From Escherichia coli (GTDB lineage Bacteria; Pseudomonadota; Gammaproteobacteria; Enterobacterales; Enterobacteriaceae), in the NCBI RefSeq assembly GCF_048403405.1, contig NZ_CP183129.1: a DNA stretch of 64,000 nt. One strand, 5' to 3'. Below are positions 51,712 through 57,848 of this stretch, piece after piece. The notes below the pieces were generated by a model. That model was not told the DNA's origin and did no database searches. It saw only the letters and a list, made by a program, of their open reading frames with translations. The translations under genes and the position numbers were made by a program. The number at the start of each line of letters is the position of its first letter. Within the stretch, counting starts at the first letter, position 1.

Positions 51712-53316
51712 TTAATCAAACGAAAGACGCCTACGTGCACGGGAGGCAGGTTTTACGACAGCCCGAGCCATCGCCTCACCAATTTCTGCACATGCCGTAA
51801 GTCCCTGAACGAAAGGCTGGTCGTGCATTAACCAGGGCAACGCGCCGAACGCTACGCGCCCACGAATATCTTCGGGTTGCTGTAACGTATAATCTTCGCC
51901 AACATCAGGGATTTCATCCCCTGTTTTCTGTAATTGTTCGCGTAGTCCAGGGAAAGGAATATCTTTCACTTTAAGCGGACGCTGCCCACGGGCATCAATA
52001 AAAACGTCAAACGAGTAGCTGTTGTCTTCCGTTTTCAGGACGGTGCGCGACTCATTAATTTCCATTTCGTAGTCTTCACCGAGGGCGAGTATATGAATGA
52101 TTCCCGCTTCACGTAAGGCCAGCAGCCGACGAATAGACTCTGAAGGGATTGCCGCATAATTATCTATGAAAACTCGGGCAAGGCCTTTACTGAACCGTTT
52201 ATGGTCGTGTTCATTCAGATGTGGAACAATTTCCTGTACTGCTTCATGCAGGCGCAGAATGACATAACGCCAGGGAACAGTATGTTTTTCTCGTTTATTG
52301 CGTTCGACTTCCTGGAGATTTTTTTCTGCCCAGTCGAATGGGTCGCGTTGTTTGCGCTCGGCAAACCAGGCTTGAGCAAAGGAATCGACATTCAGGCTCT
52401 CTAAGGCTATGCGTTGGCTCCAGCCTGGATCAGCAAACTTGATTTCCTCTACTATCAATCTAAATACCCGATCCAAAAGACCATATTCGCCTTTTTGAAT
52501 CTCAGCATTTAATGCCTGATCAGTGACGATGTGTAAGGGCTCGTAGGGAATAGGGCAATAGAAATCGGCTTCGGGTAAAATACCTGTGCGCGACATTAAC
52601 GTAATATTTAGCTTTTCACTTGCGTTATCGCGGTGAAAAATGACGTGTTGTTTATCATCTTCAATGAACGAACCATGCTGAATAGCCACTGCCATTGCCG
52701 CATCCAGTCCGCTCAAGGATGTTCCCATAATACCCACGTTACACGCATCGACCTTTGCTTCCATCAGGCCTGACCACGGGCTGGGAAAGTACGTTCTGGT
52801 TACTTTTTCTTCATCAGGCCAGACGTGACCCGTGGCGATCACTGCTAAATCAAACGTCTCGCTGGGTAAATCCTGATTTGTAGCGAGCATGACGCCAGCA
52901 TTTGTAATTTGCAGATCGGTAACCTGGCATGATTCATAAACAGCCACCGCAAATTTTTGCTGTCGTGCCTGGTCTACTAATCGTAAAAATTGATCGCGGA
53001 AATATTCGCCCAGCAGAATTCGCGGTAAAAACTGACGATCGTGCAAGGTTTCTTTTTTGACGCCATAACGCTGGAGATGGCTGGCTTCTTGCTTTTGTAG
53101 CCATTCGAGATACGTACAATAAATCGGCGGTATTTCAATACTGGCAATATTTGCCAGCATCAGTTTTGAGTTTTCCTCATCACTGTATGGCATCCCGACA
53201 CCGGCTTCATCAGCCTGCTCGAAGATAGAAATAGAAAGTGGAGTTTGTTGCTGTAGAAGCGAGAATAAGGTGTAGATCCCCGTAGGCCCGGCACCCACAA
53301 TAGCAATTTTTTTCAT
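51712..53316 (-). CDS. ydhS: FAD/NAD(P)-binding protein YdhS
   Basis: 534 aa with N-terminal Rossmann motif MKKIAIVGAGPTGIYT. Confidence 0.85.
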   Translation of the reverse strand: MKKIAIVGAGPTGIYTLFSLLQQQTPLSISIFEQADEAGVGMPYSDEENSKLMLANIASIEIPPIYCTYLEWLQKQEASHLQRYGVKKETLHDRQFLPRILLGEYFRDQFLRLVDQARQQKFAVAVYESCQVTDLQITNAGVMLATNQDLPSETFDLAVIATGHVWPDEEKVTRTYFPSPWSGLMEAKVDACNVGIMGTSLSGLDAAMAVAIQHGSFIEDDKQHVIFHRDNASEKLNITLMSRTGILPEADFYCPIPYEPLHIVTDQALNAEIQKGEYGLLDRVFRLIVEEIKFADPGWSQRIALESLNVDSFAQAWFAERKQRDPFDWAEKNLQEVERNKREKHTVPWRYVILRLHEAVQEIVPHLNEHDHKRFSKGLARVFIDNYAAIPSESIRRLLALREAGIIHILALGEDYEMEINESRTVLKTEDNSYSFDVFIDARGQRPLKVKDIPFPGLREQLQKTGDEIPDVGEDYTLQQPEDIRGRVAFGALPWLMHDQPFVQGLTACAEIGEAMARAVVKPASRARRRLSFD

Positions 53317-53441
53317 TGTTACTTACCTGTACGCATTCTTTCGAATTTAGTGTTATCAGATAAGTTTGGTTGAGATTTTTAGAATTTGAGAAATTTCAGA
53401 CAGGGATGAAAAGGGCGCTAACCGCCCTTGATTAAATTCTG

Positions 53442-53747
53442 TCAGGCGAGTTTTGCCTGATTGATTTGACTAAGTGGCTCATTGACATCGAAAACTTTGG
53501 CGACAACTTCCTCAACGCCGAGATTTTTCAGTCGGGCAGTATGTTTTTCCAGATAGGCAAGGGCGCTTTTTTCATCAGTAAAAAGGTAGATCCCACCGGC
53601 TTCGTGGTTCTTTTCACTTTCTGTCCATACCTTCCACAGAAAACCAGGTTCCTGATTAATCGACTCAGCAAGCGGTTTAAGCTGCTCAGCCATTGCGTCG
53701 CCAAATGGGCCATTGAAAGAAAAATGAAGTTGTAACAAAGTTGCCAT
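53442..53747 (-). CDS. ydhR: Putative monooxygenase YdhR (Dabb-like)
   Basis: 101 aa, [56 protein letters not shown]. Confidence 0.85.
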
Positions 53748-53855
53748 AGCGATTCTCCTTCTGATAACGCATACGAAGACAGTGTAAATCTTTTAACGTA
53801 TTGGATACAGAGAAGAAACAGAGGGAAAAAAGGAGAAGACCAGATTAAGAAAATC

Positions 53856-53932
53856 TGGTGCGTCCGAGTGGACTCGAACCACCGACCCCCACCATGTCAA
53901 GGTGGTGCTCTAACCAACTGAGCTACGGACGC
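53856..53932 (-). tRNA. valW: tRNA-Val (anticodon GAC)
   Basis: The minus strand reads GCGTCCGTAGCTCAGTTGGTTAGAGCACCACCTTGACATGGTGGGGGTCGGTGGTTCGAGTCCACTCGGACGCACCA: a cloverleaf with a GAC anticodon and encoded CCA. Which copy is valV and which is valW is inferred from K-12 order. Confidence 0.9.
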
Positions 53933-53936
53933 AGGA

Positions 53937-54013
53937 TGGTGCGTTCAATTGGACTCGAACCAACGACCCCCACCATGTCAAGGTGGTGCTCTAACCAACT
54001 GAGCTATGAACGC
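53937..54013 (-). tRNA. valV: tRNA-Val (anticodon GAC)
   Basis: The minus strand reads GCGTTCATAGCTCAGTTGGTTAGAGCACCACCTTGACATGGTGGGGGTCGTTGGTTCGAGTCCAATTGAACGCACCA: same anticodon arm as the neighbour, different acceptor and T stems, 4 nt spacer. Confidence 0.9.
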
Positions 54014-54321
54014 AACGTTGTAGGTGACAACGGGGACGAATATTAGCGGCAGAGTGGGAAGGTGGCAAGAGGCAAAACGTAATTTTCTGCGCTATTTCGA
54101 CCGTTTGCAGAGCTTTTAAGCAAATTGGCTATATTTTGTTGATTTGCAAGGGCGATTTTTATTCAGGATCGCATTTACATCTGACACAACCCAATAATCT
54201 GTGTATCAGAGTTTAAACAGAGTTGTTTGCCACCATCTCAAAATCTGTCGTGGATAAATCCTCCGTAGCCTTTACACTTAGGTAGCAATAAAGGCACACA
54301 GATGCAGCAAAGGAATAAATC

Positions 54322-55578
54322 ATGGGATCTGATGCGAAAAACTTGATGAGCGACGGGAACGTGCAAATTGTTAAGACCGGCGAGGTCATTGGCGTGACGC
54401 AACTTACTGCAGGTGAGTTAATTGTTGAAGCTGGCGGAAGAGCCGAAAATACCGTGGTCACGGGGGCTGGCTGGTTGAAAGTGGCAACCGGTGGGATCGC
54501 CAAATGCACACAGTACGGCAACAATGGCACGCTATCGGTCAGCGACGGTGCCATTGCCACAGATATTGTTCAGTCCGAGGGAGGCGCAATTAGTCTCTCT
54601 ACGCTCGCTACGGTTAATGGCCGCCATCCCGAAGGTGAATTCAGCGTTGATAAAGGTTATGCCTGCGGTTTGTTGCTGGAAAATGGCGGTAACCTGCGTG
54701 TACTGGAAGGCCATCGCGCGGAAAAAATTATTCTCGATCAAGAGGGTGGCCTGTTGGTCAATGGGACAACCTCAGCGGTCGTGGTAGATGAAGGTGGTGA
54801 ATTGTTGGTGTATCCAGGTGGGGAAGCCAGCAATTGTGAGATTAATCAGGGCGGCGTTTTTATGCTGGCGGGGAAAGCCAGTGATACGTTGCTTGCTGGT
54901 GGCACCATGAATAATCTCGGTGGTGAAGACTCTGACACTATTGTTGAGAATGGAGGCATCTATCGTCTGGGTACGGATGGTCTTCAGCTCTACAGTTCCG
55001 GTAAGACGCAAAACCTGTCCGTTAATGTGGGGGGGCGGGCTGAAGTGCATGCCGGTACGCTGGAAAATGCGGTAATACAAGGTGGGACAGTCATCCTGTT
55101 GTCACCCACCAGCGCGGACGAAAATTTTGTCGTAGAGGAAGATCGCGCACCGGTTGAACTGACCGGTAGTGTTGCATTACTGGACGGCGCTTCAATGATT
55201 ATTGGCTATGGCGCAGATCTGCAACAATCAACGATTACTGTACAGCAGGGCGGTGTATTGATTCTCGACGGCAGTACGGTAAAAGGTGACAGTGTCACTT
55301 TCAGTGTTGGTAACATCAATCTCAATGGCGGAAAACTGTGGCTAATCACTGGTGCGGCAACGCATGTGCAACTGAAAGTGAAACGCCTGCGCGGAGAGGG
55401 AGCGATTTGCCTGCAAACCAGTGCGAAAGAAATTTCACCTGACTTCATCAATGTGAAAGGGGAAGTTACTGGTGATATACACGTTGAGATAACAGATGCC
55501 AGTCGGCAAACTCTGTGTAACGCACTGAAACTACAGCCAGACGAAGACGGGATTGGCGCAACGCTCCAGCCTGCGTAA
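54322..55578 (+). CDS. ydhQ: Autotransporter-passenger-like repeat protein YdhQ (no signal peptide, no beta-barrel)
   Basis: 418 aa, Gly/Thr/Asn-rich with ~19-residue beta-helix-type repeats (e.g. GGxxxNTVVxxGG, EINQGGVFML, VIQGGTVILL). Confidence 0.85.
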   Translation: MGSDAKNLMSDGNVQIVKTGEVIGVTQLTAGELIVEAGGRAENTVVTGAGWLKVATGGIAKCTQYGNNGTLSVSDGAIATDIVQSEGGAISLSTLATVNGRHPEGEFSVDKGYACGLLLENGGNLRVLEGHRAEKIILDQEGGLLVNGTTSAVVVDEGGELLVYPGGEASNCEINQGGVFMLAGKASDTLLAGGTMNNLGGEDSDTIVENGGIYRLGTDGLQLYSSGKTQNLSVNVGGRAEVHAGTLENAVIQGGTVILLSPTSADENFVVEEDRAPVELTGSVALLDGASMIIGYGADLQQSTITVQQGGVLILDGSTVKGDSVTFSVGNINLNGGKLWLITGAATHVQLKVKRLRGEGAICLQTSAKEISPDFINVKGEVTGDIHVEITDASRQTLCNALKLQPDEDGIGATLQPA

Positions 55579-55586
55579 AAACACAG

Positions 55587-55618
55587 GCGCAACCCGTGAA
55601 GGTTGCGCCTTGTCTTTA
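55587..55618 (+). terminator. Terminator after ydhQ, between convergent ydhQ and mdtK
   Basis: GGCGCAACC-CGTGAA-GGTTGCGCC followed by TTGTCTTT. Confidence 0.7.
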
Positions 55619-57013
<1,395 letters not shown>

Positions 57014-57206
57014 TTATATGAGAGACTAAAAAGCCGCCTGAATGGGCAGCAAAAAGAAGAAGCAGGGGAAATTCAGTCTATTGTAGCGAGGATTTATTAA
57101 TTCTCCAGTGAAAAAATAGTCATTCTTACCCCTTCACTGGTAAGGGCGTTTGCCACCTGCTATTGTGCTGAACAGAATGTCTTAACTGATTTCAGGAGTT
57201 GTAAGT

Positions 57207-57848
57207 ATGTTTACGGGGATTGTACAGGGCACCGCAAAACTGGTGTCGATTGACGAGAAACCAAATTTTCGTACGCATGTGGTGGAGTTACCCGACCACA
57301 TGCTGGACGGCCTGGAAACAGGTGCTTCCGTGGCGCATAACGGTTGCTGCCTGACCGTGACGGAAATTAACGGCAACCATGTCAGTTTTGACCTGATGAA
57401 AGAAACGTTACGCATTACCAATCTTGGCGATTTAAAAGTGGGGGATTGGGTAAACGTTGAGCGTGCGGCGAAATTCAGTGATGAAATTGGCGGACACTTA
57501 ATGTCAGGTCATATTATGACCACCGCTGAAGTGGCGAAAATATTAACCTCGGAAAATAATCGCCAGATCTGGTTTAAAGTCCAGGATAGTCAGTTGATGA
57601 AATATATCCTGTACAAAGGATTTATTGGCATCGACGGTATTAGCCTGACCGTCGGCGAAGTCACGCCAACGCGTTTTTGCGTCCATTTAATTCCGGAAAC
57701 TCTGGAACGCACGACTCTTGGGAAGAAAAAACTCGGCGCACGCGTCAACATTGAAATTGATCCACAAACTCAGGCAGTGGTAGATACGGTAGAACGTGTG
57801 CTGGCGGCACGAGAAAATGCCATGAATCAACCAGGTACAGAAGCCTGA
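57207..57848 (+). CDS. ribC: Riboflavin synthase (alpha chain)
   Basis: 213 aa, [57 protein letters not shown]. Confidence 0.95.

Follow-up and report, generated by a model that had tools for sequence, protein, structure and literature searches.

The ydhQ gene is one of the remaining genes of unknown function in Escherichia coli K-12, and its product is routinely labelled as 'adhesin-related' or as an 'autotransporter'. It is considered here in a stretch of 64,000 nucleotides of E. coli (assembly GCF_048403405.1, contig NZ_CP183129.1), called the window throughout, in which an earlier reading of the letters alone (the sequence-only reading) had singled out YdhQ as a passenger-like repeat protein devoid of secretion signal and translocator, possibly what is left of an adhesin or else a protein that acts inside the cell. 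On the plus strand, the window contains an intact ydhQ open reading frame (ORF) of 418 codons followed by a stop codon, just where that reading had placed it and with the N-terminus MGSDAKNLMSDGNVQ (Table 1). The encoded protein is 99% identical to the YdhQ of K-12 (b1664, 'putative adhesin-related protein'), is annotated in E. coli genomes as 'AIDA repeat-containing protein', and matches the NCBIfam equivalog family of YdhQ, NF007409, over its entire length (1-418 of 418, 935.9 bits against a cut-off of 830).

The start of the gene is well defined. A Shine-Dalgarno sequence, AAGGA (54310-54314, plus strand), precedes the ATG, and an in-frame TAA (54316-54318) lies only two codons 5' of it. 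This stop is kept in all seven Escherichia loci checked, and a longer N-terminus is therefore excluded in them; in a deeper lineage (L012) the nearest in-frame stop lies 13 codons 5' of the start. Both the Shine-Dalgarno/ATG block (alignment A2) and the N-terminus MGSDAKNL (alignment A1) are conserved, the former across species, and the proportion of synonymous differences (pS) in the first 20 codons is 0.25, compared with about 0.6 elsewhere in the gene, which fits a genuine translation start. The neighbours are those named in the sequence-only reading: upstream, on the opposite strand, two tRNA-Val(GAC) genes (valVW, 53856-54013, minus strand) and, downstream, mdtK (55619-56992, minus strand), which converges with ydhQ. 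The 40 bp that separate the ydhQ stop from mdtK hold a bidirectional terminator hairpin located between the two stop codons. Rfam has no match inside ydhQ or its leader, and PADLOC gives no defence-system match.

YdhQ has a beta-helical passenger domain. Pfam recognizes four AIDA stretches (E 2.7e-28) and, toward the C-terminus, a Pertactin domain (PF03212) of which about two thirds is matched, so that the autochaperone domain is incomplete. The repeats had been described as rich in glycine, asparagine, and threonine; the glycine part stands (15.6%), as do the repeats themselves, whereas threonine (7.9%) and asparagine (5.5%) are only moderate. The protein is acidic (pI 4.46) and carries five scattered cysteines, which make up 1.2% of its residues, whereas 100 long homologues have a median of 0.49%.

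The elements that would take such a passenger out of the cell are missing, in agreement with what had been proposed for the signal peptide, the C-terminal beta-barrel, and the partner transporter. Neither the barrel domain (PF03797) nor the ESPR matches YdhQ in Pfam even at E<=1, and the maximal 12-residue hydropathy in the first 50 amino acids is 1.12, compared with at least 2.06 in six signal-bearing relatives. SignalP 6.0 is also negative (PMC13101318). Searches with tblastn of seven signal- or barrel-bearing relatives against positions 53001-57500 returned nothing outside the ydhQ frame and no decayed ends, and four barrel domains had no match in the whole window; hence no partner transporter is found in the flanks or anywhere in the 64 kb. 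The C-terminal tail of YdhQ has no significant similarity to the remaining autochaperone domain of five relatives (z<=1.5). Compared with a type Va autotransporter, YdhQ possesses the passenger and lacks the Sec signal, the barrel, and a complete autochaperone domain.

The structural model, a check that the sequence-only reading had called for, leads to the same picture. AlphaFold2, run on a 10-sequence alignment, gives an all-beta protein with a mean predicted local distance difference test score (pLDDT) of 85 and a predicted template modelling score (pTM) of 0.75; it contains no barrel, and its sole helix has three residues. The best matches of this model in the PDB, as found by Foldseek, are the passengers of Ag43 (7koh, 7kob, 7ko9, and 4kh3, E 6e-12 to 2e-10) and TibA (4q1q), with other autotransporter passengers, beta-helical lyases, and tailspikes scoring far below them. 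A sequence search of the PDB likewise returns Ag43 (7ko9, 7koh, and 4kh3) and TibA (4q1q). Within the model, the autochaperone part is formed by long paired strands (pLDDT >90) and the tail by two strands (pLDDT about 88-90), while an acidic loop, PTSADENFVVEEDR, is predicted to be disordered. This loop exceeds in length the matching stretch of the relative P0100.

An exhaustive phmmer search over 1.84 billion representatives places the closest full-length autotransporter-like relative, P0026, at only 38% identity; P0026 has 1534 amino acids, an ESPR, 11 AIDA stretches, and an AC_1 domain. An intact full-length orthologue, of which ydhQ would be an internal fragment, was not found in this search, and the partial matches that NCBIfam gives YdhQ to Ag43, AIDA-I, and BafA all lie below threshold. 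The origin of the protein is better seen in P0100: residues 2-392 of YdhQ are collinear with residues 72-486 of this relative, whose sequence runs on through a complete Pertactin domain to a beta-barrel. YdhQ therefore derives from a self-associating autotransporter passenger, of which it represents an internal-to-C-terminal stretch, cut about 70 residues after the start and about two thirds of the way through the autochaperone domain.

As regards the remaining homologues, most of the long ones (P0032-P0174) are giant AIDA-type repeat proteins of 1-6 thousand amino acids which start directly in the repeats (e.g., MAYIISSG) and have no hydrophobic N-terminus, so that this type of repeat also occurs outside type V secretion. 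Many of them have common C-terminal tails, such as FEESGKGLLASL or WQNIAKLA, which may be a sorting signal. A classification of 112 long homologues, based on the signal peptide and the barrel, was crude and too insensitive for quantitative use.

The gene is not decaying. The ratio of non-synonymous to synonymous substitution rates (dN/dS), calculated by the Nei-Gojobori method, is 0.07-0.125 for ydhQ at synonymous divergences of 0.1 to 2.8, and the excess of synonymous changes is significant both against K-12 (Fisher p 1e-12) and against E. albertii (p 2e-64). Since the ratio remains at about 0.1 throughout, with such an excess, a neutrally decaying pseudogene is excluded. Every segment of the gene is constrained, including the novel tail (0.125), and the strongest constraint falls on the acidic loop (dN/dS 0.033), which is near-invariant in alignment A1. 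Purifying selection has maintained ydhQ at 418-419 amino acids: the protein has exactly 418 residues in Shigella, E. ruysiae, E. marmotae, E. albertii, and Escherichia sp. E4742, and 419, with 72% identity, in the deeper lineage.

The distribution of the gene delimits its origin. Of 5426 complete E. coli genomes, 5425 contain the 2-kb ydhQ region, 5419 of them at a coverage of at least 80% and with ydhQ annotated. A rare natural knockout is found in E. coli AR_0013 (NZ_CP032204.1; locus L011, 3622-6539), in which ISEcp1 splits the gene into two pseudogene halves. Among the orthologous and outgroup loci, which were obtained via exact-protein look-ups, ydhQ lies between valVW and mdtK in the window, K-12, E. 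albertii, E. marmotae, Escherichia sp. E4742, and two further Escherichia loci. The gene order ydhR, two tRNA-Val genes, ydhQ, mdtK, ribC, cfa does not vary among the five longer Escherichia loci. The short contigs of the deeper lineage cover only the two adjoining sides, with mdtK downstream and the valVW-promoter region upstream of ydhQ. In Salmonella, Enterobacter, and Pseudenterobacter, by contrast, mdtK is followed 150-410 bp on by the two tRNA-Val genes, with neither a ydhQ gene nor a tblastn trace of one between them. Only the valVW promoter side, from 54014 to about 54100-54149, is common to these three genera (85-86% identity), and the outgroups have a different hairpin at the position of the ydhQ/mdtK terminator. 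Since ydhQ is absent from the three outgroup genera, the region is a cassette of about 1.5 kb specific to the Escherichia lineage. This cassette contains only the passenger fragment, with its own leader and terminator, and is found in Escherichia and the one deeper lineage.

The tRNA-Val(GAC) pair by mdtK is a variable junction across genera. In Salmonella (L008, 9514-17362), type III secretion genes (Bac_export, SsaP/SsaO, and FHIPEP; apparently Salmonella pathogenicity island 2) come directly after the tRNAs, and in Enterobacter (L009, 9528-17374) HSP20, GlgS, and type VI secretion genes occupy this place. The identity of 85-86% covers the first 75 nucleotides 5' of valV in Salmonella and Enterobacter and about 111 in Pseudenterobacter. 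Across Escherichia, the first 140 or so nucleotides 5' of valV (promoter plus AT-rich region) are almost invariant, far more so than the adjoining ydhQ leader. Positions 53731-53894 (plus strand) match the Rfam family RF02194 (HPnc0260, 'bacterial antisense RNA') over its full length, with 112 bits for a gathering score of 59 and an E of 1.3e-15; the match is antisense to the start of ydhR and the 3' part of the adjoining tRNA-Val.

Several studies have connected ydhQ with the heat-shock sigma factor. The gene is listed in the RpoH regulon (PMC2710865), is found among the sigma-32 sites known from earlier reports and recovered again by chromatin immunoprecipitation on microarrays (ChIP-chip), with a signal of 1.4 (PMC2996942, Table 2), and is co-listed with the sigma-32 genes ycjFX, yciS, and yhdN (PMC2868799). 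In the leader, a motif resembling the sigma-32 promoter consensus used for comparison (TTGAAA-N13-14-CCCCATnT) is the sole match of its pattern in the window, where 0.02 would be expected, the pattern having been chosen post hoc; the motif is identical in K-12. The ChIP coordinate of the ydhQ site is 1744259, the resolution of ChIP-chip being too coarse for exact placement, and the ydhQ ATG lies at 1746127 in NC_000913.3. If the former belongs to U00096.2 numbering, which we presume to be offset by about 1976 bp from NC_000913.3, the site falls about 108 bp 5' of the ATG, that is, on the motif. A scan with the sigma-70 consensus found no promoter for ydhQ, only that of valVW. Other regulators have also been mentioned: ydhQ is computationally predicted as a CsrA target (PMC5389547), and genomic systematic evolution of ligands by exponential enrichment (SELEX) yielded an FlhDC site in the ydhQ-valV spacer (PMC9962212). 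The sequence of this site corresponds to 54064-54105 of the window and overlaps the valVW -35 element (54063-54068), so it may concern the expression of the tRNAs rather than that of ydhQ.

Table 1. Features of the ydhQ locus, with their positions in the window and the evidence for each.
Feature	Coordinates	Strand	Evidence
ydhQ coding sequence, 418 amino acids plus stop	54322..55578	+	ORF; NF007409 match; dN/dS about 0.1
AIDA-type strand-loop-strand repeat beta-helix, about residues 16-300	54367..55221	+	Pfam AIDA x4; TIGR04415; Ag43/AIDA-I profiles; PDB; Foldseek
Acidic loop PTSADENFVVEEDR, residues 262-275	55105..55146	+	pLDDT <50 at residues 263-274; lowest regional dN/dS
Partial pertactin-type autochaperone domain, residues 329-403	55306..55530	+	PF03212 positions 1-78 of 121, E 5.6e-06; collinear with the Pertactin domain of P0100
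Novel C-terminal tail, residues 393-418	55498..55575	+	no detectable homologue; dN/dS 0.125; two modelled strands
Shine-Dalgarno AAGGA and in-frame TAA	54310..54318	+	sequence; alignment A2; stop in seven loci
Candidate sigma-32 promoter TTTAAA-N13-CACCATCT	54212..54238	+	sole pattern match in the 64-kb window (post hoc pattern)
valVW promoter region, left edge of the ydhQ cassette	54014..54100	-	-35 TTGCCA and -10 TAATAT at 54040-54068
Bidirectional terminator hairpin	55585..55610	.	terminator-like sites on both strands

The protein is made: YdhQ has been detected by mass spectrometry (PMC6561319), appears among the 17 unannotated proteins of an RNA-binding screen (PMC11066096), and has been co-purified with EF-Tu (PMC2672614). 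A recent study, which calls YdhQ a 'leaderless autotransporter' and uses it as a surface-display anchor, found that a reporter fused to it was cytosolic and fluorescent when no signal peptide was supplied (PMC13101318, 2026). Taken as a whole, the evidence favours, with a probability of roughly 70%, that ydhQ is an exapted passenger fragment: a cytoplasmic, heat-shock-regulated, stand-alone right-handed beta-helix kept by selection. YdhQ descends from the passenger of a type Va autotransporter of the self-associating (Ag43/AIDA-I/TibA) type; the fragment begins within the repeat region and ends about two thirds into the autochaperone domain, and a tail of 26 residues follows. With neither Sec signal nor beta-barrel, YdhQ should be unable to use the type V pathway and should remain in the cytoplasm, where, under heat or protein-folding stress, it might serve as a binding scaffold by means of the face of the beta-helix and the strongly conserved acidic loop. 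In this sense, the two possibilities raised by the sequence-only reading are compatible: the collinearity with Ag43/AIDA-type passengers supports an adhesin remnant, although not a decaying one (418-419 amino acids, dN/dS about 0.1), and the sigma-32 listing, the proteomic detection, and the cytosolic reporter (PMC13101318) support an intracellular role.

A more specific version, to which we would give somewhat less than even odds, is that YdhQ is a domesticated type V passenger, a beta-helix which is induced by heat shock and binds to a partner in the cytosol via its repeat face and the acidic loop PTSADENFVVEEDR. Such partners might be, for instance, the translation machinery or RNA, at which the EF-Tu co-purification and the call by orthogonal organic phase separation (OOPS) hint, or unfolded or nascent beta-helical proteins.

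Several observations weigh against the exapted, cytoplasmic fragment. The deletion of ydhQ has no obvious laboratory phenotype; the deletion mutant serves as a neutral control strain and the locus as a landing site (PMC6962156; bioRxiv 10.1101/2023.03.28.534373). The constraint on ydhQ, with a dN/dS of 0.1, is several-fold weaker than that on neighbouring housekeeping genes (mdtK and cfa, 0.017 each; ydhR is at 0.07). The -35 element of the sigma-32-like motif is poorly conserved between species, the -10 only partly so, and its statistic is post hoc. High-throughput screens are the source of both the EF-Tu co-purification and the RNA-binding call by OOPS, either of which could be non-specific. 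Finally, a surface role is suggested by a study which, citing earlier work, states that ydhQ is needed in the first phases of adhesion (second-hand, PMC9110714), by the presence of YDHQ among the COG3468 gene names in a table of extracellular-vesicle protein clusters (PMC10458587), and by the surface display reported once a signal peptide was added (PMC13101318), although the latter result sits uneasily with a protein that has no barrel at all.

These last data are the basis of one rival explanation, namely that YdhQ still acts as an adhesin at the surface or outside the cell, which it leaves by a non-classical route (the barrel of another autotransporter acting in trans, vesicles, or lysis) and aids early adhesion and biofilm formation. 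Its fold, which is that of the self-associating adhesins, would suit this role, as would the few positively selected sites reported in the gene, which are usual for surface proteins (PMC9110714). Nevertheless, the explanation rests on second-hand or indirect data and is without any export route: YdhQ has no signal peptide or barrel of its own, no barrel gene is found in the 64 kb, and to our knowledge the export of passengers in trans is not an established mechanism. The scattered cysteines also speak against it, as does the reporter, which was cytosolic when no signal peptide was added (PMC13101318), and genes of the sigma-32 regulon typically serve cytoplasmic and inner-membrane proteostasis (PMC2710865, PMC2996942). 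We consider it unlikely.

Less probable still, and strongly disfavoured, is that ydhQ is a functionless relic which persists only because too little time has elapsed or because its DNA acts as a spacer, as the terminator of mdtK, or as the upstream region of valVW. E. coli K-12 does contain other broken autotransporter genes; the silent knockout, the use of the locus as a neutral site, and the natural disruption by ISEcp1 would fit a relic. However, the selection data contradict it: the ORF has remained intact despite synonymous divergences of 0.7-2.8 between lineages, the dN/dS of about 0.1 is supported by p values down to 1e-64, and the start, the tail, and the disordered loop are all constrained at the level of the protein, which is moreover detected by mass spectrometry (PMC6561319, PMC11066096). 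A role of the DNA fits poorly with the outgroups, which manage without it. There is, in addition, the idea that the annotated start is wrong and that an upstream or alternative start supplies a signal peptide, which arises only from the sometimes atypical (ESPR) signal peptides of autotransporters and for which no support was found. It can be practically discarded, since the sequence refutes it through the in-frame stop two codons upstream in seven Escherichia loci and the conserved start block. The conserved MGSDAKNL, the reduced synonymous change in the first 20 codons, the lack of any signal-peptide remnant upstream in any frame, and the negative SignalP 6.0 result (PMC13101318) agree with this.

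The existence of ydhQ, its AIDA repeats, the missing signal peptide, and its sigma-32 membership are already known from databases and papers. This analysis adds the demonstration that neither export part is present, not even as a remnant, and locates the truncation points; it also shows that the insertion between mdtK and the valVW promoter is lineage-specific and that purifying selection acts uniformly, on the new tail and the acidic loop as well. The lack of type V export parts, the restricted distribution among the genera examined, the purifying selection, and the heat-shock regulon all argue against 'adhesin-related' and 'autotransporter' as functional labels. If confirmed, the preferred reading would make YdhQ a clear case of a secretion-system domain put to new use within the cell, and would call for caution where ydhQ serves as a 'neutral' integration site in stress experiments. 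If the binding of a cytosolic partner were also true, YdhQ would be the founder of a class of 'domesticated passengers'.

Among known systems, the closest is the alpha-domain of Antigen 43 (Flu; 4kh3, 7ko9, 7koh, and 7kob), which like YdhQ is composed of AIDA-type repeats forming a three-stranded beta-helix and is its best solved-structure match by sequence (E 3e-25 to 9e-22) and by fold (E 6e-12). The NCBIfam auto_Ag43 profile also matches, over positions 249-443. However, the score is 91 bits where the family cut-off is 1200, and identity in the structural alignment is about 18%. A Sec signal, a full autochaperone domain, a linker, a 12-stranded barrel, and surface display characterize Ag43 and are all missing from YdhQ, which for its part is listed as sigma-32 regulated. 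AIDA-I and TibA share with YdhQ the AIDA Pfam repeats and the TIGR04415 heptosylation-target repeat, and residues 55-350 of TibA (4q1q) align with the YdhQ model with a target-normalised template modelling score of 0.76; both are complete type Va autotransporters that undergo export and glycosylation, whereas YdhQ scores 54.5 bits against the auto_AIDA-I cut-off of 1200. With respect to the autochaperone domain (PF03212/AC_1), the last third or so is replaced in YdhQ by the 26-residue tail of no detectable similarity. In autotransporters this domain starts the folding of the passenger outside the cell, a role that cannot apply to YdhQ. NF007409 (PRK09945) is YdhQ's own family, from which it differs in nothing, and carries just the name 'hypothetical protein'. 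Lastly, YcgV has been grouped with YdhQ as an E. coli autotransporter-like protein with no reliably predicted signal peptide (PMC13101318). According to the table of that study, YcgV (955 amino acids) keeps its translocation domain, in contrast to the barrel-less YdhQ, and of the two only the YdhQ fusions gave cytoplasmic reporter fluorescence (PMC13101318).

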